Source of the DNA: an uncultured Bacteroidales bacterium
GTDB taxonomy: Bacteria > Bacteroidota > Bacteroidia > Bacteroidales > WCHB1-69
DNA: 64,000 nt
Reading direction: 5' to 3'
NCBI GenBank assembly: GCA_900315245.1
Contig: OMYJ01000007.1
Span: forward strand, 93,256-157,255
Part shown: in pieces, positions 7,744 through 25,047 of the stretch
Layout: each line of letters starts with the position of its first letter
Position numbering within the stretch: the stretch's first letter is position 1
Program-made: the position numbers and the translations under genes
The notes under the pieces: generated by a model
What the model saw: only the letters and a program-made list of their open reading frames with translations
Database searches by the model: none
Told to the model about the DNA's origin: nothing

Positions 7744-8987
7744 TATTTCCCTCCAAAATCATCATAATGCACCATTTCCTTCGTGACGCCCAAGCTGTCG
7801 AGCATCTTCAGCACGGCCTGCAGCATCATGGGCGGACCGCAGATGTAGTACTCGATGTCCTCGGGTGCGGGGTGGTTCTTCAGGTACTGCTCGTAAATCA
7901 CGTCGTGGATGAAGCCCGTGGGACCGGTCCAGTGGTCCTCGGGGAGGGCGTCGGAGAGGGCGACGTGGAACTCGAAATTGTCGTGTTCCGCCGCAAGCCG
8001 CTCGAATTCGTCCATGTAGAAGAGTTCCTTGCGCGAGCGGCCGCCGTACCAGAAGGTGGTTTTCCGTTGTGTATGTTTCACTTTGAACTGGTCGAAGATG
8101 TGCGAGCGCATGGGGGCCATGCCCGCGCCGCCGCCGATGAACATCATCTCACGGTCGGTCTCTTCCACGAAAAAGTCGCCGTAAGGTCCTGAGACATAGA
8201 CTTTGTCGCCCGGCTTCAGGCTGTAGATGTAGGATGACGCCACGCCTGGGTTCACCTTCTCCATCCGTCCCTTCTTGCGGTTGAAGGGTGGGGTGGCGAT
8301 GCGCACGTTGAGCATCACGATGCCGTTTTCCGCCGGGTAGTTGGCCATCGAGTAGGCGCGCACCGTCGGGGTTCCGTTCTTCATCCGCAGGTCGAAGAGC
8401 CCCATCTTCTGCCAGTCGGCGCGGTAGGGTTCCTCCACCGTCATGTCGGAGAAGTTGACGGTGCCGGCGGGGATGTCGATCTGGATGTAGCCACCGGAGC
8501 GGAAGTCCATGACCTCGCCCTCGGGCAGCTGCAGCACCAGCTCTTTGATGAAGGTGGCCACGTTGTGGTTGGAGACGACCTCGCACGCCCACTTCTTGAT
8601 GCCGAAGAAACTCTCGGGAATCTCGATTTCCATGTCCTCGCGCACCTTCACCTGACAAAAGAGGCGGTAATGGTCGGCGGCCTCCTTGCGGGAGATGTGC
8701 GTCAGCTCGGTGGGCAAGATCTCGCCGCCGCCGCTGAACACTTTGCCCCGGCAGGTGCCGCAGGAACCACCCCCGCCGCACGCCGACGGCACGAAGACCT
8801 GGGCGTCGGCCAGCGCCTGCAACAACGTGCACCCGCGCTCATGCTCGATCTCCTTCTTTCCGTTGATGTTGATCTTCACCGATCCCTCGGGGATCATCTT
8901 CTTCCGCGCAAATAACAGTATTCCGACCAGTAACCAGATGATTACCAGGAAGATGCTGGTAGCGGATATGATGGTTAAGATGTTCAT
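7743..8987 (-). CDS. nqrF: Na+-translocating NADH:quinone oxidoreductase subunit F
   Basis: N-terminal TM. 2Fe-2S motif [17 protein letters not shown]-binding region RAYSMANYP. Position after nqrE. Confidence 0.95.
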
Positions 8988-9004
8988 AGTCTGATTCGTT
9001 TTAT

Positions 9005-9079
9005 ACCCCCCTGCCCTTCGGGCATCCCCCCTAAAGGGTTTTACCCCCCTGCCCTTCGGGCATCCCCCCTAAAGGGGGG
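9005..9079 (+). repeat. Two tandem copies of a GC-rich double-hairpin element
   Basis: ACCCCCTGCCCTTCGGGCATCCCCCCTAAAGGG(GGG) twice, with stems TGCCC/GGGCA and CCCCCC/GGGGGG. A third copy is at ~9907..9944. Confidence 0.85.
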
Positions 9080-9099
9080 AATGGTCCTTCGACCGTATT

Positions 9100-9160
9100 A
9101 TTCTACATTATTAATTCTTAATTCATAATTCATCATTCATCATTCATCATTCATAATTGG
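9100..9160 (+). repeat. CATTCAT/AATTCAT heptamer array (nqrE-nqrF spacer)
   Basis: ...TTAATTCTTAATTCATAATTCATCATTCATCATTCATCATTCATAATTGG. Confidence 0.8.
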
Positions 9161-9162
9161 AA

Positions 9163-9765
9163 TTACATTCCCAGGAACGCCATAAACCCCATGCCTAACA
9201 GTCCGGTGATGATGTAGGCGATGCCGTTGCCTTGCAGTTTGGGCGGGATTTTCGCGTATTTGAGGCGCTCGCGGATGGCGGCGAAGGCGGTGATGGCTAA
9301 TAGCCAGCCGATGCCGGAACCGAGCGCGTAGGCCAGACTGTGCGCCACGGTGGGGAAGTTGCGCTCCTGCATGAAGAGCGAGCCGCCGAGGATGGCGCAG
9401 TTCACGGCAATCAGCGGCAGGAAGATGCCTAACGTCATGTACAGCGCCGGAAGATACCGCTCGAAGACCATCTCCAACAACTGCACGATGCCCGCGATCA
9501 CCGCGATGAAGATGATCAGCGACAGGAACGAGAGATCCGTGCCGGCAAAGCTCGCGCTCAGCCACGTCAACGCCCCTTCGCGGAGCAGGTATTTGTCGAT
9601 CAGGTAGTTGACGGGCACGGTAACCGTCAGCACGAAGCAGACGGCCAGTCCCAACCCGAAAGCAGTCTTCACGTTCTTGGAAACGGCCAGATAGGAGCAC
9701 ATGCCCAGGAAGTAGGCGAAGACCATGTTGTCGATGAAGACGGAGCGGAGGAAGATTTCTATCAT
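9163..9765 (-). CDS. nqrE: Na+-translocating NADH:quinone oxidoreductase subunit E
   Basis: 200-aa polytopic protein, FIDNMVFAYFLGMCSYLAVS, typical NqrE/RnfA family. Confidence 0.95.
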   Translation of the reverse strand: MIEIFLRSVFIDNMVFAYFLGMCSYLAVSKNVKTAFGLGLAVCFVLTVTVPVNYLIDKYLLREGALTWLSASFAGTDLSFLSLIIFIAVIAGIVQLLEMVFERYLPALYMTLGIFLPLIAVNCAILGGSLFMQERNFPTVAHSLAYALGSGIGWLLAITAFAAIRERLKYAKIPPKLQGNGIAYIITGLLGMGFMAFLGM

Positions 9766-9802
9766 AATGGTTATAGGTTATGGGTTATTGGTTATTGAAG
9801 CC
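9766..9802 (+). repeat. Leader 40-mer variant abutting the nqrE start codon
   Basis: AATGGTTATAGGTTATGGGTTATTGGTTATTGAAGCC differs at 2 positions from the copies at 32..71 and 59474..59513. Confidence 0.85.
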
Positions 9803-9838
9803 CTACACTGCGGCTTCGCTGCGCCTATGTGGGCTAGT

Positions 9839-9908
9839 GCCCCACACTGCGCTTCGCTTATGTGGGGTTATTAGCGCTTCGCGCGTCTTGCCCCTTCGGG
9901 GCTGCTTA
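9839..9908 (+). repeat. ~70-bp direct repeat, left copy, flanking the methyltransferase gene
   Basis: GCCCCACACTGCGCTTCGCTTATGTGGGGTTATTAGCGCTTCGCGCGTCTTGCCCCTTCGGGGCTGCTTA. A further degenerate half-copy lies at 9801..9838. Confidence 0.8.
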
Positions 9909-9960
9909 CCCCCCTGCCCTTCGGGCATCCCCCCTAAAGGGGGGAATTGGGGATTTTCGC

Positions 9961-10030
9961 ATCTTCATTCAACATTCATAATTCAGCATTCATAATTCAG
10001 CATTCATAATTCATAATTCTTAATTCTTAA
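9961..10030 (+). repeat. CATTCA(T/G)-type heptamer array
   Basis: ATTCAACATTCATAATTCAGCATTCATAATTCAGCATTCATAATTCATAATTCTTAATTCTTAA. Confidence 0.8.
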
Positions 10031-11030
10031 TGGAGTTTCGTTCCCAGAAGACGCCGTCGGCGTATCCTTGTATTGTGGGATTCGTGTCGGCGAGGAGGAG
10101 GCGTTTGGCGGTCCAGAGGCAGTATTCGCGGTTGAGTTCGACGCAGCAGAAGCGACGGTTGAGCTTCTTGGCAACGACGGCGGCGGTGCCGCTGCCGGAG
10201 AAGGGGTCGAGGATGCGGTCGTCGGGGTTGGAGGAGGCGAGGATGAGTTTGGCGTAGAGTTTCTCGGGCTTCTGCGTGGGGTGGTCGGTGTTCTCGGGCA
10301 TCGACCAGAAGGGCACGCTAATGTCGTCCCAGAAGTTGGAAGGGTGGGTGAGTCGGAATTTGCCCTCGGCGGTGTCGTCCCAGTCTTTGGGCTTCCCGTT
10401 CACTCGATATGGGGCTATCACCTTGCGTTTCATCATGACGGCATCCAGGTTGAAGGTGTGGTGTTTCGGGTCTTTCACGGCGAACCAGATGTCCTCCATG
10501 CTGTTCTTCCAGTTGGATTTCGCCCCGCGGCCCTTCTCGCGTTGCCAGGTGATGCGGTTGAGGATGGTAAGTCGCTCTTCGATAACCCGTTGCATGGAGG
10601 AGGAACATTTCCAGTCGCCGCACATGTAGAGCGTGCCAGTCGGTTTCAGCTTGTCGCACACCTTGCCGAACCAGCTGCGCAGGAATTCCTCGTATTCGTC
10701 TGATTTCATAGACGAGAACTTCCGTCCGTTGAAGTCTTTGTCGAGGTTGTAGGGCGGGTCGAGGAGGATGAGGTCGAAGTGTTTGTCGGGGATGAGGTCG
10801 AGGCATTCGAGCAGGTCGCCGTTGACGAGCATGTTGTCGCGGAAGCCCGAGCGCAGGTCGTCCGGCGTGCTGACGATCGGTTCCAGCGCGGGGACTTCCC
10901 CGGCGGTGACCGTCAGCGTCTGATTACGCGGGGCACGTCCCCCACACTGTGGCTCCGCCTTGTGTGGGGTTAATTTTGCTTCGCGCGTCTTGCCCCTCCG
11001 GGGCTGCTCAAGGAATGAATTCGTTGTCAT
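10020..11030 (-). CDS. Orphan beta-class N6-adenine/N4-cytosine DNA methyltransferase (N6_N4_Mtase family)
   Basis: Motif IV LLDPPYNL precedes motif I DPFSGSGTAAV. The track start 11075 is a TTG inside the -7 box, so the first plausible ATG is 11030 (alternative 10832). The first ~35 codons are encoded by a repeat element. No adjacent endonuclease is recognisable. Confidence 0.85.
   Translation of the reverse strand: MTTNSFLEQPRRGKTREAKLTPHKAEPQCGGRAPRNQTLTVTAGEVPALEPIVSTPDDLRSGFRDNMLVNGDLLECLDLIPDKHFDLILLDPPYNLDKDFNGRKFSSMKSDEYEEFLRSWFGKVCDKLKPTGTLYMCGDWKCSSSMQRVIEERLTILNRITWQREKGRGAKSNWKNSMEDIWFAVKDPKHHTFNLDAVMMKRKVIAPYRVNGKPKDWDDTAEGKFRLTHPSNFWDDISVPFWSMPENTDHPTQKPEKLYAKLILASSNPDDRILDPFSGSGTAAVVAKKLNRRFCCVELNREYCLWTAKRLLLADTNPTIQGYADGVFWERNSIKN
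10939..11010 (+). repeat. ~70-bp direct repeat, right copy (inside the 5' end of the methyltransferase ORF)
   Basis: CCCCCACACTGTGGCTCCGCCTTGTGTGGGGTTAATTTTGCTTCGCGCGTCTTGCCCCTCCGGGGCTGCTCA, in the same orientation as 9839..9908. Confidence 0.8.
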
Positions 11031-11064
11031 TTGCTGCCTCTTTCTCTCATGCTTTTCGAAGCCG

Positions 11065-11072
11065 CAAAGGTA
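11065..11072 (-). promoter_or_regulatory. -7 box (TACCTTTG) for the methyltransferase, possibly also feeding nqrEF
   Basis: Extended CCGCAAAGGTACA context, 35 nt upstream of ATG 11030. Confidence 0.55.
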
Positions 11073-11146
11073 CAATTTTTTGGTGTTCGTGCATAATCAT
11101 CAGAAACAACAATCGCATTTCACCTGCGCACTATCGGATTTTTTTG

Positions 11147-11154
11147 TACTTTTG
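11147..11154 (+). promoter_or_regulatory. -7 box (TACTTTTG) reading into the plus-strand island genes
   Basis: TAnnTTTG match divergent from the methyltransferase promoter. Confidence 0.45.
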
Positions 11155-11430
11155 CACCTGTAAAAATGGATAAGAACCAAACTTTATTGAATATTAGAAG
11201 AGAGAAATAGACATTTATAATTTTTTGATATAAAGCGTTTTTGCTTTTCAAGTAATCGGAAATCTGGACAATTTCCACTGTGTTACAGAAGAAGGCAGAA
11301 ATGCTCACGGTGTATCCGTGGGCTTTCTCGTTTGTAACACAGGCAGTCCAGAGCCTCCGATTAGACAGAAAGACTCACGGATTCTTTTTTGTGACAGCTC
11401 GAAAGGCGAAGCGCCCCAAACGCCAAGCCT

Positions 11431-11634
11431 ATGAGCACCAAGTTTTTCAACAATATCGAGACGAGGCTGATGGACAAATTCCACGGCATCGCCTCCGCCA
11501 TGGCCAACTTCGACATCTTCCATGCCGTGGTTGGCTATTTTCGTTCCAGCGGCTACTTCAAACTGCGCAAGGAGCTGGAGAAGGTCAGCGAAATCCGCAT
11601 CCTCGTCGGCATCAATATCGACACAATATTCTGA
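11431..11634 (+). pseudogene. N-terminal 67-codon fragment of a PLD-like-domain / SNF2-type restriction-like helicase gene
   Basis: MSTKFFNNIETRLMDKF...FDIFHAVVGYFRSSGYFKLRKELEKVSEIRILVGINID matches, from memory, the N-terminus of large PLD-helicase(-methylase) proteins. The ORF stops exactly where GC-rich sequence switches to AT-rich sequence. Confidence 0.55.
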
Positions 11635-11669
11635 AAATAATAAATACACGATTGCTTTTTAAGAAGTAG

Positions 11670-14027
11670 TTGAAACTTGCGACTATTTTTTTAGTTTTGC
11701 AAAGTCATATTCAAAAGAATTGTTTTTACAAAATATCAATAGTTGTGGAAAATTATAAACATGCTTGGCAATATGCTTTAAGAAATCAATTAAAGCACTT
11801 GCGGTCCGAAGGTGAGATATCTGAAAGAGAGTGCCTGTCTTTAATAGATGATATAATATCTTGTGATTCTGAAGCGGAATTTTATCGTCGTCATGACATG
11901 GATAACATTTTGAGTGGCGATATCATTCCTGACTTTGTCACAACTGATGATATTATCACAGATGACCTAACTATTGAAGACGAAGCACGTAAAATTGTAT
12001 TAGAGAAAAATATACAACTTATTGATGGCGTTTATTATTGTTTGAAAGAAAAAAAAGTAATCGCTATTAAGGGCGATGTAACACATTGTCATATACGAGA
12101 AGGAATTAAAGAAATCACTTACTATGCTTTTAGAAACTACTCCGAATTTGATATTCGAGATATTCTTGAGGATTATTCTGTCTTCAGTCACAATGCTTTA
12201 CTGGATATCATATTGCCTGATAGTTTAAAAAAGATAGATGACCTCGTCTTTTATAATACTAGTTTACGTAATGTTAAATTACCTGATGGTTTAGAAATGT
12301 TGGGAGAAAAAACTTTTGCTGCTAATGATTCTTTAGAAACAATTGTTTTACCAACCAAACTGCGCACAATAGGGAAAGGATGCTTTTCTAATTGTCCAAA
12401 ACTTAAGGAAGTTGAGCTTCCCCAATCGGTAAAAATGATAAAAGATGATTGTTTCAATGGCTGCACTTCTTTAGAAAAGTTTATTTTCCCTCAAACAGTG
12501 AAATCCATTGGTAAGTGCGTTTTCGAAAAATGTGTCTCTTTAAAAGAAATTGAGCTTCCTCATTCTTTGGAAACTATAGGACAAGCCGCTTTTACTAAGT
12601 GTACATCCCTACAGTCTATTATTATACCTAAAAATGTAAAAAACATTTCCGATAATGTATTTGGATATTGTTCCTCTTTAAAGAAAATTGAGTTTTTAGG
12701 GAGCTTCGACGAATTGAAGGGTGGTTTTTTTCGCAGTTGCTATTCATTGAAAGAAGTATTGTTGCCAAATAGTTTAGTAGAAATCGGCAATGCTGCTTTT
12801 AGCTCATGTATATCCTTAAAGGGCATAAAGATTCCTGACACAGTAGAATTAATAGGCTGTAACACTTTTAGAGATTGTATTTTGTTGGAGGAGTTCAGAT
12901 TTCCGAATAATCTTCAAGTTATTTTATCGCAAGCTTTTAAGGGATGCAAGAGCCTACGAGTAGTATATGCAAACAACAATATTGTAAAGATTTTTCCTAA
13001 CGCCTTTGATGATTGTAGTTCATTACAAGCCATTGTTGTTCCACCAGGATCGCTAAAACGAATGCAAAGTATCTTCCCGAAACGTGTTGCTGAAAAACTA
13101 GTAGAAATAGACCAGTTTCGGCCAGAAACTATTGTTGCTGTGCAACTTTATAAGAAAGATTATGTAATTAACAATATCAATCGTTCTTTTTTGAATAGTT
13201 TTCCGTGGAAGTATATTAATACCAACAATGTTACTCTCTTGCATCCCAATTACGTAGTTGGGCCTTGTCCAAAGCACCTTATTTATGAACGGGAAGATTT
13301 ATTGTCTCTTGAAACAAAGTACCAAGATTATTATTATAAGATTCAAAATGATTTTATACGAGGAACATTTTACAATCTCGATGACGAAATGTATAAGACG
13401 TATGCTTTCATACTATTTTTCGACTTAATTGCATCATACAGAGACAATAAAGATTTGAGTAAATTGCTTAATCAATTAGAAATTGTGCGTATTTCCTGTC
13501 CTATAATAGGGGATTATGTCCCAGAAAAGCTAATGACAATAATAGATTATAAACAATTGACTGGCACCTCTAAATTAATGATTCTTAAGGCTTTTCCGGG
13601 TTTTCGAGGCATGATGTCCATAAAGGACTATGCCCTGTTGGTGTTAAATTATTCTGATTCTCAAATAATCAAATTGAAAATACTGGAAGACGTTCAGATT
13701 TGTGAAATACAATTGTTGAAGTCTTATGAGAAAAGATACAAAGTGACACAAGGAGAGATTATAAAAGAAACGATAGATCTTGTGCTGCAAGTCGCCGGAA
13801 AATATGATGATTTTTCAAAGGCAGCGTTGTTGGCAGCAAAAAGGCAAAAAATCACATCTCTAACAGAGATAGGTTCGAGATTTTTGCGCAGATGCTTTCA
13901 GGAAGTGCTTCGTAATCATAATCCAAATATTATTTATGGTGATGGGATAGGATATGGAGATTGTGGAATTGAGAAAATTGATGAATACCTAAAGGAAATC
14001 ATGGAATCGAACACGCCGATTCACTGA
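11670..14027 (+). CDS. Signal-peptide-less BspA-type leucine-rich-repeat (LRR_5) protein with an unknown ~320-aa C-terminal domain
   Basis: About 11 repeats of the form LP.SL..IG..AF..C.SL..I.IP. The start is uncertain: TTG 11670 or the first in-frame ATG at 11898. AT-rich. No signal peptide or TM is visible. Confidence 0.75.
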   Translation: MKLATIFLVLQSHIQKNCFYKISIVVENYKHAWQYALRNQLKHLRSEGEISERECLSLIDDIISCDSEAEFYRRHDMDNILSGDIIPDFVTTDDIITDDLTIEDEARKIVLEKNIQLIDGVYYCLKEKKVIAIKGDVTHCHIREGIKEITYYAFRNYSEFDIRDILEDYSVFSHNALLDIILPDSLKKIDDLVFYNTSLRNVKLPDGLEMLGEKTFAANDSLETIVLPTKLRTIGKGCFSNCPKLKEVELPQSVKMIKDDCFNGCTSLEKFIFPQTVKSIGKCVFEKCVSLKEIELPHSLETIGQAAFTKCTSLQSIIIPKNVKNISDNVFGYCSSLKKIEFLGSFDELKGGFFRSCYSLKEVLLPNSLVEIGNAAFSSCISLKGIKIPDTVELIGCNTFRDCILLEEFRFPNNLQVILSQAFKGCKSLRVVYANNNIVKIFPNAFDDCSSLQAIVVPPGSLKRMQSIFPKRVAEKLVEIDQFRPETIVAVQLYKKDYVINNINRSFLNSFPWKYINTNNVTLLHPNYVVGPCPKHLIYEREDLLSLETKYQDYYYKIQNDFIRGTFYNLDDEMYKTYAFILFFDLIASYRDNKDLSKLLNQLEIVRISCPIIGDYVPEKLMTIIDYKQLTGTSKLMILKAFPGFRGMMSIKDYALLVLNYSDSQIIKLKILEDVQICEIQLLKSYEKRYKVTQGEIIKETIDLVLQVAGKYDDFSKAALLAAKRQKITSLTEIGSRFLRRCFQEVLRNHNPNIIYGDGIGYGDCGIEKIDEYLKEIMESNTPIH

Positions 14028-14072
14028 GCATACTGATTAAAAATAGGCGTGATGCTCTTTCTTTCTTTTATT
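14026..14072 (+). terminator. Candidate terminator after the LRR gene
   Basis: GAGCATAC...GTGATGCTC imperfect stem followed by TTTCTTTCTTTTATT. Confidence 0.4.
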
Positions 14073-14247
14073 AGTTGAAGCTTGGAGTTGCATATTCCGG
14101 CGATACCCGTTGGAGTTTTTGAGTTTGCGGAAAATTAGTCAAATATCTTATGAAAAAGAAAAACGATAACAAATACCGAAAATCAATACAATCAATATGT
14201 GATTGAGGTAATATCATAATCTCAAACACAATGGGGATTTACTACAG

Positions 14248-14469
14248 TTGGATAAGGTTCAATTTCTTACAGTCCCGTTATACTGTCCTTCTACTAAGCA
14301 ACAAACACTCGTTGTCGCTTTGGTTGACAAAATCATTGATGCTAAGAAGTCCAATCCTTCGGCTGATACCTCCGCGTTGGAGCGTGAGATTGACGAGTTG
14401 GTGTACGAGTTGTATCAATTGTCACCTGAAGAGATTGCCACAACAGAGGGTTATTGTACACAGAATTAA
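14248..14469 (+). pseudogene. C-terminal fragment of a type IIG / Eco57I-like restriction-modification methyltransferase
   Basis: ...LVVALVDKIIDAKKSNPSADTSALEREIDELVYELYQLSPEEI is the characteristic C-terminal tail of gamma-class RM/BREX-type methylases (from memory). No upstream catalytic region is present. Confidence 0.55.
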
Positions 14470-14548
14470 AATAATAGTGTAAATCGCTGTGTGATTTCTT
14501 GTTCAAAAGGTCTATTCACCTGTAATTTACTGCAATTTGGTTGATAAG

Positions 14549-14594
14549 AAATAGCATTTTTTTCTGACAATTCACGAATTAAATGCTATTTTTG
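14549..14594 (+). promoter_or_regulatory. -7 box (TATTTTTG, 14587..14594) embedded in an 11-bp inverted repeat
   Basis: AAATAGCATTT (14549..14559) and AAATGCTATTT (14581..14591) are perfect reverse complements. The right arm overlaps the -7 box. Confidence 0.5.
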
Positions 14595-14631
14595 TGAAAT
14601 AATCAACCTAACGAAAGGAGGTATAAAAGAA

Positions 14632-14757
14632 ATGGCAAAAAAAGTACCATCAAGAAGAGTCGCATCTCTTGCAGCTCGTGCGTTAAGAAATCGCAAATCA
14701 AGCAGAGCCTTAAAAAGTTTGGCGGGAAGTGTGCTTTCACAGCGAGAAAAGAGATAA
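14632..14757 (+). CDS. 41-aa Arg/Lys-rich micro-ORF (MAKKVPSRRVASLAARALRNRKSSRALKSLAGSVLSQREKR)
   Basis: Not in the track because it is <60 aa. ATG is preceded by AAAGGAGG at -18..-11 and by a TAnnTTTG box at 14587..14594. Coding status is unproven. Confidence 0.3.
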   Translation: MAKKVPSRRVASLAARALRNRKSSRALKSLAGSVLSQREKR

Positions 14758-14801
14758 AGCAATAAAAATGTTTATAATTCTAACAATTAAATCTAAGTAA
14801 C

Positions 14802-15224
14802 ATGGATAGTAGCAAATTAAAAGATCTTATCGTGACTTTGCTCATAGAAGAGTCATCAAAAGTTGGGAACAGATTCACGTTTGATGCCTGCGCAACACCG
14901 ATAAAAGAATCAACGTCTGATGATGTTGAGCGCGTACTGCATTCGTTGGCGCAAGATGGATTCATCAATTGTGATGATTTATTAGAAAACAACTACTTTA
15001 TAACATTAAACCAGTCAATTTTTGATTTGAAAGAGCGCGGCGGGTTTTCAATGCAACTTGAAATCCTAAAGTTGAGATTTGAGAAACTACAAATAGAGGT
15101 TGAAAAACTTGAGAAAGAAGACTTCGAAAAAAGCTCCATGAAAGTTTCCGCGTTTCGTGACATTACGGGAATATTGAGCTCTCTTATCAATATCGTTTCT
15201 GCCATTGCAGATTCTTACAAATAA
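14802..15224 (+). CDS. Hypothetical protein (possible wHTH-like N-terminus, coiled coil, hydrophobic C-terminal helix)
   Basis: AT-rich ORF with a 12-nt gap to the next ORF. LEILKLRFEKLQIEVEKLEKEDFEK coiled coil. C-terminal ITGILSSLINIVSAIA. No family recognised. Confidence 0.55.
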   Translation: MDSSKLKDLIVTLLIEESSKVGNRFTFDACATPIKESTSDDVERVLHSLAQDGFINCDDLLENNYFITLNQSIFDLKERGGFSMQLEILKLRFEKLQIEVEKLEKEDFEKSSMKVSAFRDITGILSSLINIVSAIADSYK

Positions 15225-15236
15225 AATAATCATACA

Positions 15237-16073
15237 ATGAAGACATTTCAAGATAATAACAAAAATGAATGCCCTAAACCAGGAATTCGTCAGAGGTGTT
15301 TTCGACACTCGATTTTTAAAACGCTATCTGATATTAAGGACTTTTATGAAAGTTTGTCTGGGAATGATGATACATCTACTATTCTCGCAATTAAGGGTGA
15401 AATCAACGTTAACTGGAGCATTCTTGAATCTCTTTCTAATACTATTGACTCCATAATAACATTGTTGGAAAGAGGTCATGTGAATGACTCGCTTGCCTTA
15501 ATGAGAAAATACAGCGATGCTGTCTTTTTGCATGTTTACATGCTTGTGCTAATAGAACAAGGAGAACAAAACTTTTTCGAAAAAGAATATGCAGATATCT
15601 ATGACAATGTCCTTAACCAATGGGTTAGAGGGGAAAGTTGTTTGATTGAGAAAAAGGACAAAGATGAGAAAACAGACGCTTATTTAGCAGAAATACGAAA
15701 ACGAGACGCTATATTAACCAAGCTGTTGTTTACAAAAGGCAATAAAACATTGTATGGAGAAGGTAGGGCTTCTTTTAACGACAACATTCATTACAACAAC
15801 TTGAAATCGTTTCGGTGGAACAATAATGCCTTTTTGGATTATGAAACATGTTTAACTGTACTGAATCAAGCAGAAAAAGCAATCAAACTTATTTTGAGCA
15901 TTCATTTCGCTTACATAACTCTATTGCGCCCAATGGCTTTGAAATCAGAAGAGGTTGGATCTTGTGCGGCCAATCCTTTCGCAGACGAAATTTTCAAGAA
16001 GTATATTGTTCCTGAATACTGCGAGTTAGCCAGTTACTTGAGACATTGTTCTTTTTTAACATTCGAAGAGTGA
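15237..16073 (+). CDS. Hypothetical all-alpha protein
   Basis: 278-aa AT-rich ORF tightly linked to 14802..15224. No family recognised. A loose resemblance to AbiV/HEPN-like helical proteins is only a guess. Confidence 0.55.
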   Translation: MKTFQDNNKNECPKPGIRQRCFRHSIFKTLSDIKDFYESLSGNDDTSTILAIKGEINVNWSILESLSNTIDSIITLLERGHVNDSLALMRKYSDAVFLHVYMLVLIEQGEQNFFEKEYADIYDNVLNQWVRGESCLIEKKDKDEKTDAYLAEIRKRDAILTKLLFTKGNKTLYGEGRASFNDNIHYNNLKSFRWNNNAFLDYETCLTVLNQAEKAIKLILSIHFAYITLLRPMALKSEEVGSCAANPFADEIFKKYIVPEYCELASYLRHCSFLTFEE

Positions 16074-16118
16074 CCGACTATAACTATCTTCGTGTCTATT
16101 CTATAAAATCAAACTATT

Positions 16119-16424
16119 ATGAACCAAAACGACCCGCGCATCACCGAATATCAAAACGACTTACAGCGCTATCAATCTTGGGGAAATTTATTCCTCGGTT
16201 TCTCTTTTGGTAGCTTCTTCTCCCCAAACGTGCCGTGCGATTCGCTAACCCTTCACAACGGCTTAGAGTATCTCAAAGCCAAAATGAAACTAAACGCCTT
16301 TAACAGCCAACATCATTCGGACGAGGAAATCGAGCACCGTTTGCGACAAATCGATACGGACATCCGCCATGTGGAGGAGGCCCTGCGGAACGACCTCTCC
16401 TTCCGAGGCCTGCTCCGTCCGTAA
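16119..16424 (+). CDS. Small hypothetical protein whose 3' half belongs to the island composite repeat
   Basis: 101 aa. Hydrophobic WGNLFLGFSFGSFFSP. The C-terminus HRLRQIDTDIRHVEEALRNDLSFRGLLRP recurs at 19500..19609, and a paralogous tail recurs at 16800..16887. Confidence 0.45.
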   Translation: MNQNDPRITEYQNDLQRYQSWGNLFLGFSFGSFFSPNVPCDSLTLHNGLEYLKAKMKLNAFNSQHHSDEEIEHRLRQIDTDIRHVEEALRNDLSFRGLLRP

Positions 16425-16887
16425 CCGCCGTCACGCGCCTCCCTGCCTACACCGGCGTCAACCGCCACGCCTCCGGCATCCGCATCGAGCTGATGGACAG
16501 CATGGTGCCGGTGGAAGCACTGGTGTGCGGGGTGAATCATCCCCGTCAGGGGATGCCTGTCTGTAGCGGATGCCCATGCGCGGGTTCAAATCCCCGGAGG
16601 GGATTCATGTTCAGCGGGTTGCCGAAACATTGTTGTGCCCGATGTGCAACCCCTCACGGGGTTGTGGGGGCTGCCGCATCGCCAACGGCTACAGACAGGG
16701 AACCCCTAACGGGGTTCGGGGGTGCGGTCGGGAACGTCCTCGCGCTACAGATATGGAAGCCCTGACGGGCTTTGGAAGGATACGGAAACGAGCCCATCAC
16801 CGCCTTGCCGAAATCGACGACGACATTCGCAAGGCCGAGGAGGTTTTCCGCTACGACCTCTCCTTCCTCAGGCGGTTGGAAACATGA
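16281..16887 (+). repeat. Island composite repeat copy A (alpha + beta units)
   Basis: Alpha ~16281..16623 aligns with 19469..19813. Beta ~16624..16887 aligns with 20980..21200. It is made of short perfect hairpins such as ATCCCC-GTCA-GGGGAT. Confidence 0.85.
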
Positions 16888-17047
16888 ATGCCCTAGTTCC
16901 ATATAATATAATAAGAACGCCCTGTTGCCACTATCGCACGTCGGGAATCCCATCCAAGTGGAAAATGCATTCCGTTAACAATGCGAATAGCAGATTTCAA
17001 AAATAATTCCAATCATCCAATATTTATTGCATAGAACAAAAAAAATG

Positions 17048-17055
17048 TATTTTTG
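17048..17055 (+). promoter_or_regulatory. -7 box (TATTTTTG) for the DUF4062/AlbA_2 pair
   Basis: TAnnTTTG match 80 nt upstream of ATG 17135. A GCAAGC/GCTTGC hairpin lies in the leader. Confidence 0.55.
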
Positions 17056-17134
17056 CAATTGCAAGCCGAGTTCGTTTACTCAGCTTGCATGAACTAATTT
17101 GGTGTAGTCATTGAATGTTTATTGAATCGGTGTG

Positions 17135-17794
17135 ATGGTAGAAAAGGACAAATTTACGGTGATGGTGAGTTCATCAGTGAACGGATTTGAAGATCAATTG
17201 CTTCGCATTGAGGCACAATTCATCACGTTGGAATATGATGTAATAATGTCAATGTCGGGTTCAATGAAGGTTGACCCAAGACTGCACAACTTTGACAATT
17301 GCTTAAAAGCCGTTGAAGAGTGTGATCTGTTTTTTGGAATTATCAGACCTGATTGCGGTACAGGCAGAGACGGAAGTGAAAGTATTACCTTTCAAGAATT
17401 TAAACATGCTCGGGAATGTCATAAACCTTGTTGGTATGTGATTGATAATCGAATTAAAACATACAAGAATTTGCTGAAATCTTTAGTTCTGCGTGAACAT
17501 CCAGACACAAAAGATGAAGATTTGAACAAAGCCATCACATCTTTCTATGATAACACTATAAGACAAAGGAGGAAACTTCCAAGAGTGTTGGATCTTTTTG
17601 AGACCAAAGACTTACATCAGTTTGATCCTTTATGTTTTGTTATGGAAGATTTTGTGAACCACAAAGGTTTACCTAAAGAAGAAATCACCAATAATTGGAT
17701 GCACTATTATGACCATGAATTGGATATCGCAAAATATATCCGTACAAATTTTGGGGACAAGGTATTCATTGCTAATGTATTAAAAGAATTTTGA
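17135..17794 (+). CDS. DUF4062-like (TIR / nucleoside deoxyribosyltransferase-like fold) protein
   Basis: FTVMVSSSVNGFEDQL...CLKAVEECDLFFGIIRPDCGTG...ITFQEFKHARECHKPCWYVI follows the DUF4062 pattern (vFiSS...DL..eR...cD.fv.i.G.rYG...S.te.Ey..A...kp...f). GTG 17132 / ATG 17135. TAnnTTTG box at 17048..17055. Confidence 0.6.
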   Translation: MVEKDKFTVMVSSSVNGFEDQLLRIEAQFITLEYDVIMSMSGSMKVDPRLHNFDNCLKAVEECDLFFGIIRPDCGTGRDGSESITFQEFKHARECHKPCWYVIDNRIKTYKNLLKSLVLREHPDTKDEDLNKAITSFYDNTIRQRRKLPRVLDLFETKDLHQFDPLCFVMEDFVNHKGLPKEEITNNWMHYYDHELDIAKYIRTNFGDKVFIANVLKEF

Positions 17795-17796
17795 TT

Positions 17797-19356
17797 ATGA
17801 GCGACAATTCGTATATAGTGGATTTTTTACTCAAAGATAGGCAAAATGTGGTGCCTATTCCAACAGCAGACCCCGTAGAGATTGCTAAAAATGCTTGTGC
17901 TTTGGCCAACACACAAGGAGGTACTATGCTCATTGGGGTCAATAATCTTGGCGAACTTGTAGGTGTTGGCCTAAAAGAAGCCACGGACATCATAAACAAA
18001 TGCCTTATCAACAATGTACACCCAACACTTCCTTTTACTATTGGCCATTCTGAAAAAGAGGGCAAAAACATTGCAATAGTTTCTGTTTGGGAAGGCCCGA
18101 ACAAGCCCTATGTTGCAAACGGTGCCTTTTACATACGAAAAGAGGATACTACTGTTGCTGCCTCATCTGACGAAATGATTGGCCTTTTTGAAGAAAAATA
18201 TTCATTAGATGAAGGATGGGAACGGAGAACGCAAGTTTCTGCTTCTATTGATGATTTAGACAGTGTTGCCATATCAAAAATTCGAAACGTATTACTACGG
18301 AAAGATGGAAAGTATGCGACAGCTTCAGAAGTGGAAATTATGCGAACTATGGGATTTGTAAAAGACCAATCCTTCACAAATGCTGGTGTTGTGGTAATGT
18401 CAAAACAGCCTTCCATATTTATACCTCAAACAAGAATTAGAGTGTCGGTATTCACAACGGATAATGGTCAAGCATCTTTGGCAGATGTAAGGTTATACGA
18501 TATTAGTCTTATATCCGCTGTTGACGAAGTGGTCGCCTATCTTTACAATCTATATCCTAAGCGTGTTGTTATCGAAGGAATGTTACGCTCTGATGTCGAG
18601 TCATTGCCGTTGTTGGCCTTACGAGAAGGAATATTAAACGCCGTAGTTCATCGTTCGTATGAAAGCCATCAGTCTTTTGTTGCCATTAATGCATATAGCG
18701 ATTATCTGGAAATTGTTAATAGTGGGAATCTTATGGATGGTGTCACCTTGGATGGATTAAAGAGCGTTCATCGTTCTGTTTTACGTAATCCGGATATTGC
18801 AAATGCTTTTTACCAATTAAGATATATCGAAATGGTGGGAAGTGGTACTTTAAGGATTATTGAATCCTGCAGACAAAACAGATGCGAAGAACCAGTATGG
18901 ACATTGGCGAACAATTGCGTGATTCTGACTTTTCCAAATGTCCATCACAATTTACAACCATTGAAAGAAAAGAAATCTGTTGATGTTTCCAATCTGACGA
19001 CAGACAATTCGGTCAAAGTTTCATTAACTGCTATTATGGATTATTTAGCTACTCATGATCACGTTAAATTAAATGAGTTGACAGAACTGACAGGAAAGAG
19101 CTACCCTTCAGTGAAAAGATACATGCGAATTCTGAAAGACGCATCATTAATTGAATATCTTGGTAATTTGCGTTCTGGCGGCTGGGCATTATCTAATAGT
19201 GTCAGCACCTCGCGTCATAGCAGACCGCTTGATGATCCCAATGATAGTCCTAATGATGATCTTAATGGTGATCCCAATGACGATCCTAATGATGATCCCA
19301 ATAGTGATCCCAATGGTGATTCCAATGGTGTTCCTAATGGTGATCCTAATATATAG
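17797..19356 (+). CDS. Schlafen-type AlbA_2 domain + HATPase_c_4 + wHTH protein (RecG-like putative regulator family) with a low-complexity Asp-Pro-Asn tail
   Basis: N-terminal IAKNACALANTQGGTMLIGVNNLGELVGV (AlbA_2). LREGILNAVVHRSY...MVGSGTLRIIESC (HATPase_c_4). wHTH LNELTELTGKSYPSVKRYMRILKD. Start is either ATG 17797, 2 nt after the upstream stop, or TTG 17791 overlapping it. Confidence 0.8.
   Translation: MSDNSYIVDFLLKDRQNVVPIPTADPVEIAKNACALANTQGGTMLIGVNNLGELVGVGLKEATDIINKCLINNVHPTLPFTIGHSEKEGKNIAIVSVWEGPNKPYVANGAFYIRKEDTTVAASSDEMIGLFEEKYSLDEGWERRTQVSASIDDLDSVAISKIRNVLLRKDGKYATASEVEIMRTMGFVKDQSFTNAGVVVMSKQPSIFIPQTRIRVSVFTTDNGQASLADVRLYDISLISAVDEVVAYLYNLYPKRVVIEGMLRSDVESLPLLALREGILNAVVHRSYESHQSFVAINAYSDYLEIVNSGNLMDGVTLDGLKSVHRSVLRNPDIANAFYQLRYIEMVGSGTLRIIESCRQNRCEEPVWTLANNCVILTFPNVHHNLQPLKEKKSVDVSNLTTDNSVKVSLTAIMDYLATHDHVKLNELTELTGKSYPSVKRYMRILKDASLIEYLGNLRSGGWALSNSVSTSRHSRPLDDPNDSPNDDLNGDPNDDPNDDPNSDPNGDSNGVPNGDPNI
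19231..19353 (+). repeat. 12-nt tandem repeat (~10 units) encoding the (D/N/S)-(D/G)-P-N tail
   Basis: GATGATCCCAAT GATAGTCCTAAT GATGATCTTAAT GGTGATCCCAAT ... Confidence 0.85.
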
Positions 19357-19381
19357 CATTTGATGATTGAGGAAAAAGTGA

Positions 19382-19612
19382 CATTGGCATCTCATTTCTC
19401 AGCTACTTTTCTTCCGATCTCCCAGCGGTTCCATAATTCGCAACAACAGTTTGGAATTCTGCAAATCCCAAAAGAAGCTAAACGCCCTCACCGATGCCCG
19501 TCACTCTGACGAGGAAACCGCTCACCGTTTGCGGCAAATCGACACGGACATCCGCCATGTGGAGGACGTCCTCTGTCACGACCTCTCCTTCCGAGGCCTG
19601 CTCCGTCCGTAA
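19382..19612 (+). pseudogene. Start-less degenerate copy of the 16119..16424 ORF
   Basis: The in-frame translation ...KKLNALTDARHSDEETAHRLRQIDTDIRHVEDVLCHDLSFRGLLRP* parallels the C-terminal half of the 101-aa ORF. There is no ATG, and a TGA lies immediately upstream. Confidence 0.45.
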
Positions 19613-19813
19613 CCGCCGTCACGCACCTCCCTATCCCACACCGCCCCCAACCGCCACGCCTCCGGCACCCGCATCGGGCTGATGGACAGCACGGTGTCGG
19701 TGGAGGCGATGGTGGGCGGGGTGCCCCCATCCCCGTTAGGGGATGCCTATCTGTAGCGGATGCCCACGCGCGGGTTCAAATCCCCGGAGGGGATTCATAT
19801 TCAACGGGTTGCA
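19469..19813 (+). repeat. Island composite repeat copy B (alpha unit only)
   Basis: Near-identical by eye to 16281..16623, with scattered substitutions. Confidence 0.85.
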
Positions 19814-19917
19814 AGGTGAAAATTGTCGTGAAATTATGTTCGTGCAATAAATGCGCCCCGTCCTCGTTAATCTCTGAAATAAAACGGAATATTAAACAAA
19901 CAGTAAAAGAAAACAGA

Positions 19918-20658
19918 ATGGAAATAGGAAATTTCGGATACTACTGGTTGGACACCTGGGTGATGTCCAACGTGATACAACTCGCCACGCAGGATTTCTG
20001 CAGGCGCTATCTAAACCGTTCCAACGATCCGTGTGGCCGCCAATACGACCAGATGACGCAAGCGGCACGGTCGGTACCGGCCAACATCGCGGAGGGAAAC
20101 TCGCGACACGACACCTCTAAGGAGACCGAGATGCGGCTCACAGATGTGGCCCGCGCGAGCCTCGCAGAACTGGCCAACGACTACCTGAACTGGCTCCTCC
20201 AGCACGAAGAGCTCCCATGGTCGGTGAAATCGGACATCTACTGCAAGGTGTCAAACACCCACCTCGACAAGCCCTTATACAAGGACGATGTGCAATATCT
20301 AAGCAGCCAACATATTCTGGTCCAAAAGCACAAATTCGATGAGTGGCTGGAGGCAAAGAACTCGATTATGGCAGCCAACTGCTTGTTAGTCCTCTGCAAT
20401 CGTTTGATCATGATGCTGAGGAAACAACTGGCTAACCAACTGGAAACTTTCCGGGCCGAAGGCGGTTTCACAGAAGCCCTGACCGCCGAAAGACTCGCTT
20501 ACCGAGCCGAACAAAGCGCGAACTCCAACGCCCCTGTCTGCCCGAAATGCGGCAAACCGATGATAAAGCGGATGGCAAAGAAAGGCATAAATTCGGGAAA
20601 GGAGTTCTGGAGCTGTTCCGGATACCCGGCGTGCAGAGGGACCAGAAACGTAGAGTAA
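19918..20658 (+). CDS. Four-helix-bundle (23S rRNA IVS / Avd-like) domain fused to a topoisomerase-type C4 zinc finger
   Basis: From ATG 19918: WVMSNVIQLATQDFCRRY...SVPANIAEGNSRHDTSKETEMRLTDVARASLAEL (TIGR02436-like). C-terminal CPKCGKPMIKR...FWSCSGYPACRGT (zf-C4_Topoisom-like). Confidence 0.75.
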   Translation: MEIGNFGYYWLDTWVMSNVIQLATQDFCRRYLNRSNDPCGRQYDQMTQAARSVPANIAEGNSRHDTSKETEMRLTDVARASLAELANDYLNWLLQHEELPWSVKSDIYCKVSNTHLDKPLYKDDVQYLSSQHILVQKHKFDEWLEAKNSIMAANCLLVLCNRLIMMLRKQLANQLETFRAEGGFTEALTAERLAYRAEQSANSNAPVCPKCGKPMIKRMAKKGINSGKEFWSCSGYPACRGTRNVE

Positions 20659-20676
20659 GGGTAATGTCGATGTGTC

Positions 20677-20703
20677 ACGTTATCACGTGATAACGTTTAT
20701 CTT
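20677..20703 (+). terminator. Perfect 20-nt palindrome after the 4HB-zinc-finger gene (terminator or operator)
   Basis: ACGTTATCACGTGATAACGT followed by TTTATCTT. A third ACGTGATAACGT half-site lies at 20704..20715. Confidence 0.45.
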
Positions 20704-20732
20704 ACGTGATAACGTAATCTTCAAATTGACAT

Positions 20733-21275
20733 CTCCGTCACGACCTCTCCTCCCGTCGCCTGCTCCGTCCGTGACCCCCTGTCCCGCACCTCCCTTGTCC
20801 CTCACCGCCTCCACCCGCCACGCTTCCGGCACCCGCATCGGGCTGATGGACAGCACGGTGCCGATCGAGGCGCTGGCGAGCGGGGTGGCTCATCCCCGTT
20901 AGGGGATGCCTATCTGTAGAAACGGATGCCCATGCGCGGGTTCAAATCCCCGGAGGGGATTCATTTTCAACGGATTGCCAAAACATTGTCGTGACCGATG
21001 TGCAACCCCTCACGGGGTTGTGGGGGCTGCCGCATCGCCAACGGCTACAGAGAGGGAACCCCTAATGGGGTTCGGGGGGCGCGGCCGGGAACGTCCTCGC
21101 GCTACAGATATGGAAGCCCTGACGGGCTTTGGAAGGATACGGAAACGAGCCCATCACCGATTTGCCGAAATCGACGACGACATCCGCAAGGCCGAAGCCC
21201 CTCCGTCACGACCTCTCCTTCCGTGGCCTGCTCCGTCCGTGACCGCCGTCATGCATCTCCCTTGTCCTACACCGC
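20733..21275 (+). repeat. Island composite repeat copy C (5'-truncated alpha + beta + a second partial alpha abutting nqrD)
   Basis: 20733..20979 aligns with the distal part of alpha. 20980..21200 aligns with beta. 21200..21275 repeats the start of the alpha core and overlaps the nqrD stop codon. Confidence 0.8.
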
Positions 21276-21857
21276 CCTCGGTCCTTTCGCCCAAATAATC
21301 ACCCCAATCAAGATCAGCGCCATGGGCGGCAAAATCATCAGCCCGTTGTTGAGGTAGCCGGCGGCGTACCAGCTGTCGGGGACGACCTGGTGGTTCCACA
21401 ACGTGCCGGAGCCGAGCAATTCGCGGAAGAAGGCCACCACGACGAGCACCAGCCCGTAGCCGAGACCGTTCATCACGCCGTCCATGAACGACGGGAACGG
21501 TTTGTGTGACAGCGCGAAGGCCTCCAACCGGCCCATGATGATGCAGTTGGTGATGATGAGTCCCACGAAGACCGACAGCATCTTGCTCACATCATAGAGA
21601 TACGACTGCAGCAACAGATCCACGAGGATAACGAAGAAGGAGACCACCAGCAGCTGCACGATGATGCGGATGCGTGGCGGTATCGTGTTGCGCATCAAAG
21701 AGATGATGAAGTTGGAGCAGGCACAGACCACCGTCACGGAGAGCGCCATGACCACGGCGGGCTTGAGTTGCGCGGTCACTGCCAACGCAGAGCAGACGCC
21801 CAACGTCTGCACTAAAATCGGGTTGTCTTTGCTGAGAGGTCCGAGGTACTTTTTCAT
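21267..21857 (-). CDS. nqrD: Na+-translocating NADH:quinone oxidoreductase subunit D
   Basis: NPILVQTLGVCSALAVT, polytopic, 196 aa. The last codons and the stop lie inside an island repeat. Confidence 0.95.
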   Translation of the reverse strand: MKKYLGPLSKDNPILVQTLGVCSALAVTAQLKPAVVMALSVTVVCACSNFIISLMRNTIPPRIRIIVQLLVVSFFVILVDLLLQSYLYDVSKMLSVFVGLIITNCIIMGRLEAFALSHKPFPSFMDGVMNGLGYGLVLVVVAFFRELLGSGTLWNHQVVPDSWYAAGYLNNGLMILPPMALILIGVIIWAKGPRAV

Positions 21858-21861
21858 GGCA

Positions 21862-22476
21862 TTAATGGTGATTGGTGATTTGTGAAGAGTGAATGGAGGA
21901 TTGCATCATCTCATCCACTCCTTTGGAGGTCAGTGTGGCGCCGGAGATGGCATCCACGCGGTTCTCTTTGGCGATTTCGCTAGCGGTTCCAGCTTTCAGA
22001 ACCCTCACGGACACGAAGTTGCCATCCTTATCGTAGAGTTTCTTGCCTTCGAAGGCTTTCAGGAACGCCTTTTCTGTGATTTTCGCGCCCAAGCCGGGGG
22101 TTTCCGATTTGTGGTCGAAAGCGACACCTTTGAGCGTTTGTCCGTCCTCCGACACCACCGCGTAGCCCCATATCGGACCCCAAAGCCCTTTGCCATCGAG
22201 ACGGATTGCTGTGCCCTTCGAACCGTCGGCGCAGATGACACGGTACTGCTGACCGTCATCGGTCAACGGCTCGGCAAGGTTTGCGAACGCCGCCACAGCT
22301 TTCGAACGGTCGATGTCGTGTCCGGCCGCCCGCAGGATCTGCTGATACGTCTCGGCCTGCCGATTGCGGTCGCGTCGCGGCTTTAACCCCGTGGAAACCA
22401 GAGTAAGCACCACCGCTATCACCACAACTAACGCCGTGATATAGAGGAAGATGTAGGTGTTGCTGAATTTTTTCAT
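21862..22476 (-). CDS. nqrC: Na+-translocating NADH:quinone oxidoreductase subunit C
   Basis: N-terminal TM. FMN attachment motif SGATLTS. The C-terminal QITNHH is encoded by heptamer-repeat-like sequence. Confidence 0.95.
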   Translation of the reverse strand: MKKFSNTYIFLYITALVVVIAVVLTLVSTGLKPRRDRNRQAETYQQILRAAGHDIDRSKAVAAFANLAEPLTDDGQQYRVICADGSKGTAIRLDGKGLWGPIWGYAVVSEDGQTLKGVAFDHKSETPGLGAKITEKAFLKAFEGKKLYDKDGNFVSVRVLKAGTASEIAKENRVDAISGATLTSKGVDEMMQSSIHSSQITNHH

Positions 22477-22478
22477 TT

Positions 22479-23687: not shown

Positions 23688-23688
23688 A

Positions 23689-25029: not shown

Positions 25030-25047
25030 CGTTTCGTTTTGAAACTG

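Follow-up and report, generated by a model that had tools for sequence, protein, structure and literature searches.

A strain-variable region of accessory genes between nqrD and nqrE in an uncultured rumen Bacteroidales bacterium

Structure of the nqr locus and its relatives

The DNA analysed here, a 64,000-nucleotide (nt) stretch of contig OMYJ01000007.1 from an uncultured Bacteroidales bacterium (hereafter, the window), carries the genes for the sodium-translocating NADH:quinone oxidoreductase (Na+-NQR) in two separated blocks. All six subunit genes were identified by Pfam; they are intact and are arranged in canonical order on one strand (Table 1). The gene set is not contiguous, as nqrD and nqrE are separated by a gap of 11,501 nt (9766-21266) that contains opposite-strand genes. 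A preliminary description of this DNA had placed nqrABCD and nqrEF on the same strand in canonical order, 11.5 kb apart, with nearly all gap open reading frames (ORFs) on the opposite strand. The Pfam assignments and coordinates bear this out, and the gap was found to contain one same-strand gene and ~10 opposite-strand ORFs or remnants.

Both NqrD and NqrE can be aligned end to end with the corresponding Vibrio cholerae subunits (PDB 7xk3). In NqrD, the motifs LGVCSALAV and ITNCIIMGR, and in NqrE, the motifs LGMCSYLAV and VNCAILGG, are aligned to their V. cholerae counterparts. In published V. cholerae structures, these four cysteine motifs supply the ligands of the intramembrane Fe centre. 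Among strains, nqrD differs at 18-24 nt and nqrE at 7-15 nt, with 0 amino acid differences in either protein, a pattern that points to strong purifying selection on both halves. Because the differences in the two genes are synonymous only, both halves of the operon are probably still in use. The two genes remain syntenic in each strain examined, and the D/E split is fixed in the species group rather than strain-specific.

The loci and contigs of relatives that were compared with the window, all of them metagenome-assembled genomes (MAGs) or metagenome contigs, are labelled with L-numbers; the closest genomes are MAGs of uncultured rumen Bacteroidales, e.g. RUG13189, RUG538, and RUG182. Of the 69 species representatives whose fetched locus contained both genes, 63 have an nqrD-nqrE spacer of at most 170 nt, among them the close relatives L025-L034, whose NqrE is 83-93% identical to that of the window. 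This adjacency in sister species indicates that DNA was inserted into a formerly tight nqrD-nqrE junction, in agreement with what had been proposed from the window alone. In the nearest relatives, the spacer is enlarged by steps: it measures 316 nt in L024 and 508 nt in L023, and L022 (RUG538) contains nqrD, ~2 kb of DNA, a methyltransferase gene, and nqrE within 3.3 kb in total on a single contig. In L021, the methyltransferase gene and nqrE are preceded by >8.8 kb of different AT-rich genes. Interruptions of the operon (A/B, C/D, D/E, or E/F) are present in five of nine species with NqrE at least 90% identical, in three of 11 at 76-89%, and in five of 56 at 75% or less, and are thus common in the clade of the window. 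Other genes were also seen within these operons: an EF-G/TetM-like GTPase gene (~690 amino acids) lies on the same strand between nqrC and nqrD in three related species (L023:6845-8920, L026:3663-5729, and L028:6258-8330), and L022 and L025 carry a gene for a secreted protein of ~600-630 amino acids, judged by eye to be alpha-L-fucosidase-like, between nqrA and nqrB.

The nqr genes have a guanine-plus-cytosine (GC) content of 0.55-0.58, and the DNA outside the gap averages 0.507 +/- 0.052 (1-kb windows), compared with 0.33 (11624-14212), 0.36 (14416-16254), and 0.38 (16888-19424) in three blocks of the gap, which are the lowest-GC stretches of the entire window. The AT-rich blocks previously noted by eye are thus confirmed by computed values. 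In its deviant base composition and its variable presence across strains, the gap resembles a genomic island.

Table 1. Positions and strands of the nqr genes and of the features in the nqrD-nqrE gap
Feature	Position	Strand	Basis or remark
nqrF	7743-8987	-	Pfam Fer2, FAD_binding_6, NAD_binding_1
nqrE	9163-9765	-	Pfam Rnf-Nqr
Remaining native nqrE leader: hairpin resembling a repetitive extragenic palindrome (REP) and heptamer repeats, directly upstream of the ATG	9766-9840	-	Aligns with L024 and L023
Direct repeats flanking the methyltransferase cassette, 76-78 nt, 83% identical	9831-9906 and 10931-11008		
Methyltransferase cassette in the nqrE leader	~9841-11039	-	Boundaries from alignment with L024 and L023
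N6_N4 DNA methyltransferase ORF, sole same-strand gene of the gap	10020-11030	-	Pfam; PADLOC type II methyltransferase
Conserved putative nqrE promoter region and leader start	11040-11117	-	Colinear with upstream of nqrE (L024, L023) and upstream of the methyltransferase gene (L021, L022)
-7 box TACCTTTG before the methyltransferase gene	11065-11072	-	Motif search
Truncated PLD/HKD-SNF2 helicase gene: 5' region and first 67 codons (ORF 11431-11634)	11195-11634	+	
AT-rich block, GC 0.33, with the gene for a BspA-type leucine-rich repeat (LRR) protein (11670-14027)	11624-14212	+	Pfam LRR_5
3' remnant of an Eco57I-like (type IIG-like) methyltransferase gene	14213-14415	+	203 nt, 89% identical to the 3' end of the L012 gene (1068 amino acids)
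AT-rich cassette with ORFs of 140 (14802-15224), 278 (15237-16073), and 101 amino acids (16119-16424, into repeat A)	14416-16254	+	Homologous to L012 and L137
GC-rich repeat copy A, full unit, GC 0.60	16255-16887	+	
Cassette with a DUF4062 gene (17132-17794) and a Schlafen/AlbA_2-HATPase_c_4 gene (17791-19356)	17132-19356	+	Pfam; GC 0.38
GC-rich repeat copy B	19425-19831	+	
Cassette gene: 23S_rRNA_IVP four-helix-bundle domain fused to a Top1-type zinc ribbon (IVP-Zn)	19918-20658	+	Pfam
GC-rich repeat copies C and D, array end, abutting/overlapping the nqrD stop	20733-21285	+	
nqrD	21267-21857	-	Pfam Rnf-Nqr
nqrC	21862-22476	-	Pfam FMN_bind
nqrB	22623-23687	-	Pfam NQR2_RnfD_RnfE, 6e-102
nqrA	23689-25029	-	ATG at 25029; longest ORF from TTG 25050; Pfam NQRA_N, NQRA_2nd, NQRA_SLBB
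Bacteroidetes-type -7 box TACCTTTG before nqrA	25048-25055	-	Motif and k-mer search

Methyltransferase cassette and promoter-like boxes upstream of nqrE

Read along the nqr strand, the spacer of L024 consists of a box, a leader ('...GAGAAAGAGGC'; full stretch, AAAAAAAATGTACCTTTGCAGCTTCAAAAAGTATGAGAGAAAGAGGC), a REP-like hairpin, heptamers of the AACCAAT type, and the nqrE ATG. The window contains the same parts in two places, i.e. the L024-like box and leader at 11040-11090 and the hairpin, heptamers, and ATG end at 9766-9840, with ~9841-11039 inserted between them. The methyltransferase cassette is thus an insertion within the old nqrE leader, separate from the rest of the gap. The methyltransferase gene is intact (33 nt and eight amino acid differences from L002) and is kept in all strains and in two further species (L021 and L022). 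The spacer between it and nqrE, composed of the hairpin and heptamers, is of the same kind as the nqrE-nqrF and nqrB-nqrC spacers inside the operon. In L008, an insertion sequence (IS) element lies between the methyltransferase gene and nqrE and brings a copy of TACCTTTG to 187 nt upstream of nqrE.

Short repeats of these two kinds occur elsewhere as well. Tandem 7-nt arrays, e.g. 17 copies of TTAGTGA between nqrB and nqrC, are present in many intergenic spacers of the window, often just before start codons (83-132, 9112-9158, 9967-10031, 22477-22596, 25070-25110, 27006-27071, and 59523-59571), and also upstream of nqrE in L023-L025. GC-rich, REP-like hairpins were observed in intergenic DNA and 5' leaders (9003-9082, 9906-9947, 9831-9906, 10931-11008, and 60263-60337, and L022:7166-7615), some of them reading into ORF N-termini. 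The nqrD-methyltransferase gap of L022 holds an ORF that, by eye, is IS200/RAYT-like (YHIV...HVH motifs).

Between 7000 and 26000, the minus strand contains the Bacteroidetes-type sequence TAnnTTTG at 11065, 15884, 16998, 17149, 17832, 23709, and 25048, of which only the copies at 25048 (nqrA) and 11065 (methyltransferase) are intergenic and upstream of nqr-strand genes. The minus-strand search revealed no such box between nqrE and 11065, as had been noted previously for the DNA directly upstream of nqrE. A 17-mer is common to the boxes at 25048 and 11065 and absent from the rest of the window; we do not claim that the promoter was duplicated from nqrA, since the 17-mer may be mere consensus and the window has four copies of its 11-mer core. 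A scan for the sigma-70 consensus, which gave 33 sites against 24 expected, was set aside as not informative for Bacteroidetes.

In all four relatives with an enlarged spacer and without the methyltransferase gene (L023, L024, L035, and L036), TAnnTTTG is present within 130 nt upstream of nqrE, and a box also precedes nqrE in L039 and L041, which have no nqrD close by. Among the 63 loci with adjacent genes, only one (L055) has a box inside the spacer, and the copy located 250 nt upstream in L100 falls within nqrD. In the window, L021, and L022, the box is positioned upstream of the methyltransferase gene. Because L024 has the same box and leader before nqrE without the methyltransferase gene or the island, the box at 11065 appears to be neither the methyltransferase's own nor island-derived. 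It is better described as a promoter-like element that belongs to the nqrE end of the spacer, behind which the methyltransferase gene seems to have landed. The preliminary description had taken 11065-11072 for the methyltransferase promoter and the nearest same-strand candidate for nqrE, and had suggested that nqrEF expression may now depend on island-derived transcription. A role of this box as the likely nqrE-nqrF promoter is retained; its assignment as the methyltransferase's own, island-derived promoter is not.

These data suggest that the box at 25048-25055 drives transcription of nqrABCD and that the box at 11065-11072 drives that of methyltransferase-nqrE-nqrF, the nqr operon most likely running as two transcription units; no terminator-like site was found on the minus strand from 11065 to nqrF. 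The island genes would be transcribed oppositely from boxes of their own on the plus strand (11147, 11692, 14587, and 17048). As they are convergent with nqrD and divergent from the putative nqrE promoter, little interference would be expected. The methyltransferase gene is probably co-transcribed with the respiratory genes, which is an unusual coupling. A promoter-like box precedes nqrE, or the gene that now leads nqrE, in every lineage in which nqrE is apart from nqrD, and the locus may thus serve as a testable case of operon splitting and re-wiring.

Strain variation, cassettes, and repeats in the gap

The region from ~11120 to 21285 contains pieces of a helicase gene and of an Eco57I-like methyltransferase gene, followed by repeat-separated gene cassettes, and appears to be the decayed remnant of a defence island. 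The 5' helicase remnant retains 429 nt that are 97.7% identical to the start of an intact gene for a protein of 1144 amino acids in L105, and the AT-rich LRR block stands in place of the helicase body and nearly all of the Eco57I-like methyltransferase gene. In the sister strains L011, L013, and L152, the same place is occupied, in the same orientation, by intact genes for the helicase (1087-1138 amino acids) and the Eco57I-like methyltransferase (1034-1068 amino acids) together with small genes. PADLOC matches of the sister-strain island proteins include HKD+Snf2, DrmD (1.7e-36), REase_MTase_IIG (2e-68), and DrmMI (2e-19); an HNH gene is also carried by sister strains, and AbiH is present in a related array. 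The helicase/methyltransferase pair (95-98% amino acid identity) was identified in at least three other chromosomal contexts (L105:10001-19270, L111:10001-19149, and L112:10001-23039), in each of which it is followed by different cassettes (AbiH, AAA_14/DUF4143, and unknowns) and, in the same orientation as here, by the GC-rich repeat. L021 matches window positions 11058-14085, including the helicase/LRR junction, at 97.2% identity, compared with only 90.6% in nqrE-nqrF, indicating that this segment was exchanged more recently than the core diverged.

The size of the gap ranges from 0.3 to 22 kb across strains and relatives, so that the locus marks strain-level variation in these uncultured rumen Bacteroidales. 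The ~22-kb gap is found in L152, L153, and L154. There, nqrBCD is followed by a gene for a protein of 413 amino acids; by cassettes, the Eco57I-like methyltransferase gene, the helicase gene, and then cysH, cysN, cysD, a sulfate ABC transporter, and a porin, all on the other strand; and by an araC-type gene, the methyltransferase gene, and nqrE-nqrF. Window positions 10926-11076, i.e. the old promoter box and one REP copy, have given way there to the sulfate-assimilation cluster (GC 0.55) and the araC gene, and these strains have a different box, TACTTTTG, located 28 nt upstream of the methyltransferase gene. The same flanks enclose different cargo in the window, L011/L013, L012/L152, L022, and L035/L036. 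We consider it probable, from this comparison of sequences, that the nqrD-nqrE spacer of the species group is a hotspot for accessory and defence genes. The preliminary description had envisaged one 11.5-kb island; that picture is not upheld, as the methyltransferase cassette is a separate insertion and the remainder differs by strain. The gap instead appears to be a layered, strain-variable mosaic of mostly foreign DNA. Strain differences were also observed beyond nqrA: a DUF1016/YhcG PDDEXK nuclease gene (window 28813-30060, GC ~0.41), a second strain-specific insertion, is present in the window-type strains L014-L016 and absent from the same place in L011-L013. The window in turn lacks a CotH gene that L011-L013 and L017-L020 carry upstream of nqrA. 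Genes were called shorter in L003, L015, and L102, but on 100% identical DNA, and the calls reflect gene-caller differences; pseudogenisation in a sister contig was therefore rejected.

Each of the three cassettes of the window is followed by a copy of the GC-rich repeat. In rumen contigs of the Joint Genome Institute (JGI), the IVP-Zn, AAA_14, DUF4062+Schlafen, 104-amino-acid, 413-amino-acid, and 140+278-amino-acid cassettes recur at 87-100% amino acid identity in different orders between repeat copies, e.g. nqrD-repeat-AAA_14-repeat-IVP-Zn in L114. The IVP-Zn gene is present at 92-100% amino acid identity in other array positions in L011, L114, L120, L130, and L135, and the DUF4062 and Schlafen pair (99-100%) adjoins a different methyltransferase gene in L118 and L131. 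No family match was obtained for the ORFs of 140, 278, and 101 amino acids. The end of the Schlafen/AlbA_2-like ORF (19230-19350) consists of a 12-nt tandem repeat of ~10 copies that encodes a D-P-N-rich tail.

The repeat units are 200-633 nt long, with copies 80-92% identical over hundreds of bases, and appear to belong to the island family rather than to nqr. A hairpin-forming part of ~60 nt, termed X (CCGGCACCCGCATCGGGCTGATGGACAGCACGGTGCCGG), always closes the array, beside the nqrD stop and beside a peptidase gene at an unrelated locus; solo copies of X are present in the short spacers of L023, L024, L132, and L138. Homology of nqrD to all relatives stops at 21285/21286, just past the codons for ...IIWAK. 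Beyond this point, the window reads GPRAV and a stop, aligning with the repeat, L024 reads NRVTER and a stop, and L022 stops directly. As the homology ends before the stop, the variable region starts inside the last nqrD codons. The last six codons and the TAG (21267-21285) are repeat-derived, so that the right junction does lie in an island repeat at the nqrD stop, as described previously, with ~6 repeat-derived codons in place of the ~3 then counted. The alignment with V. cholerae NqrD ends at the same point, which indicates that the replaced tail is non-conserved.

Candidate RNA identities of the repeat were rejected. ARAGORN found no gene in the window that would give the T-loop-like GGTTCAAATCC a tRNA or tmRNA origin; Rfam gave nothing in 7000-26000 except a chance Cyano-2 match within nqrB; and RNAalifold on 12 copies predicted 44 pairs, of which 0 showed a compensatory change. 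A coding signal is not clear in the repeat, which has one stop-free frame (RIGLMDSTVP-EAL) with weak codon-position periodicity (17/22/26) and in which a reverse frame is also open.

Origin of the gap and comparison with known systems

The following history probably accounts for these observations. The nqrD and nqrE genes would at first have been adjacent, as in sister species, and the spacer would then have grown to 0.3-0.5 kb, acquiring the promoter-like -7 box as well as X next to the nqrD stop. The DNA methyltransferase cassette would next have landed in the nqrE leader, downstream of the box. A defence island composed of the PLD/SNF2 helicase, the Eco57I-like methyltransferase, and a cassette tail with 0.2-0.6-kb GC-rich repeats takes up the space between X and the box. 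In the strain of the window, the AT-rich LRR block has replaced the helicase and methyltransferase genes, leaving three orphan cassettes, and in one sister strain type the sulfate-assimilation cluster with its araC-type gene has replaced the old promoter while the island is intact. Recombination at the repeats and conserved flanks, and not an island-encoded recombinase, probably brings cassettes in, removes them, and exchanges one for another, ordinary homologous recombination being the simplest shuffling route for repeat copies of such length and identity.

A single mobile genomic island (an integrative element, an integrative and conjugative element, or a prophage remnant) recently inserted between nqrD and nqrE would also agree with the AT-rich composition that contrasts with the flanks, the repeat copy at the nqrD junction, and the adjacency of the two genes in relatives. 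This explanation is nevertheless largely refuted and in our view very improbable. No integrase, transposase, or relaxase domain was found by Pfam in the gap ORFs or in any strain variant. Paired att direct repeats at the island ends were not found either: the repeat, including X, is present at the nqrD end and internally and is absent from 11040-11230. Moreover, the methyltransferase part was inserted separately and is conserved between species, and the inner content varies cassette by cassette between strains. Carriage by a phage or plasmid was likewise rejected, as a 20-mer of X had no match in viral contigs and plasmids gave helicase matches of <40% identity only. A chimeric contig that joins unlinked nqr half-operons via shared repeats is scarcely credible. 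The data are of the metagenome type, repeats are frequent in the region, and some contigs, such as L103 and L104, break off at the island edge (~11115-11142), and yet window positions 7000-26000 are 100% identical in ERZ931332 and ERZ27279877 and 99.97% identical in ERZ28614290 of the European Nucleotide Archive (one of which may be the window's own source), the sister-strain contigs L152 and L153 span nqrB-nqrD through the island to the methyltransferase gene, and L022 links nqrD, the 2-kb gap, the methyltransferase gene, and nqrE on one contig. In addition, the independent JGI rumen contigs L114, L126, L127, L130, and L132 show nqrD followed by the repeat and not by nqrE.

The arrangement of the cassettes raises a further alternative, which we regard as unlikely, namely integron-like capture, in which X or the repeat would be a recombination site for a recombinase encoded elsewhere and the nqrD-proximal X would have drawn the array into the operon. 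The cassettes share one orientation, each has a repeat copy behind it, and identical cassettes are found in different orders; the arrays end in X both at nqrD and at the unrelated locus; and solo X is found in otherwise 'empty' spacers. Known integron cassette arrays include CALINs (clusters of attC sites lacking an integron integrase) and defence-carrying integrons (10.1101/2024.07.02.601719; PMC12614218), and the present arrays resemble them in their small, co-oriented cassettes with conserved repeats, shuffled between arrays, and in their defence-like content. They differ in being attached to a helicase/methyltransferase operon rather than to attI and Pc, and no IntI integrase with attI was found in the window or the array-bearing loci; a search of ~20 such loci gave no recombinase gene. 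Their repeats of 200-633 nt do not have the attC architecture of 57-141-nt imperfect palindromes with R''/R' boxes: the repeat hairpins carry CCCCGTTAGGGG or CCCCTAACGGGG and not canonical RYYYAAC/GTTRRRY pairs, as judged by reading the sequence with no dedicated attC model run. The absence of covariation or a structure signal also argues against a recombination site, and the identity between repeat copies suffices for homologous recombination. There is a slight chance that the repeat and X are sites of an undescribed cassette-capture system on PLD/SNF2 helicase/type IIG-like methyltransferase operons of rumen Bacteroidales, integron-like without IntI, with X at the nqrD stop as the attachment point through which the respiratory operon would have become a docking site for cassettes.

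Some points also weigh against the history of a layered hotspot preferred here. The short spacers of L023 and L024 may be deletion scars and not the pre-island state, since X ends arrays at unrelated loci too, and promoter first, island later, may be regarded as a candidate order only. The putative promoters rest on an 8-nt motif with a frequency of about one per 2.5 kb on each strand, and the -7 boxes have no clear TTTG at -33. In the window, PADLOC matches are limited to the methyltransferase (strong) and the Schlafen-like protein (weak), and most cassettes are without a recognised defence function. Every relative compared is a MAG or a metagenome contig.

The locus appears to be of a known general kind, differing in its position inside a respiratory operon, in a cassette array that lacks the integron hallmarks, and in the loss of the helicase/methyltransferase core. 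Variable defence hotspots and islands between conserved core genes have been reported in Pseudomonas aeruginosa (PMC10250203) and Escherichia coli (PMC10121019). As in those species, the flanks are fixed, the content is strain-variable and includes restriction-modification and defence-type genes, and mobility genes are often lacking. Here, however, the flanks are two genes of one respiratory operon, and their products have to come together in a single enzyme; one strain type also carries a metabolic (sulfate-assimilation) cluster. Since Na+-NQR needs all six subunits, the variable island shows how foreign DNA can be tolerated within an essential operon for a multi-subunit enzyme. The nqr operon of Chlamydiae, reported to be split into three fragments (PMC4014512), is likewise not one contiguous unit; in the present case, by contrast, the halves are syntenic and co-oriented, and foreign genes that vary between strains lie in the break. 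Most other Bacteroidales species representatives sampled have nqrD next to nqrE.

The SNF2-type helicase with a PLD/HKD nuclease domain beside a large Eco57I-type N6-adenine methyltransferase in the sister strains resembles type IIG restriction-modification systems and the DrmD and DrmMI components of class 1 DISARM (defence island system associated with restriction-modification). Only the DrmD-like and DrmMI-like proteins were identified, in sister strains, with no drmA, drmB, or separate drmC, and thus the set does not amount to class 1 DISARM. As only 67 helicase codons and 203 nt of the methyltransferase gene survive in the window, no such system can be active there. Helicase/methyltransferase islands with shuffled, repeat-separated cassettes form a family that could be mined for new defence genes.

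Two further tandem repeats were observed in the window outside the nqr locus. An 18-nt unit, TTAGCCTTCGGCTGTTGA, is repeated ~7 times (96% matches) at 60120-60248, downstream of a minus-strand ORF and just before a REP-like element with two hairpins, and a low-GC stretch at 48330-48698 contains 5.3 tandem copies of a 69-nt unit (83% matches).

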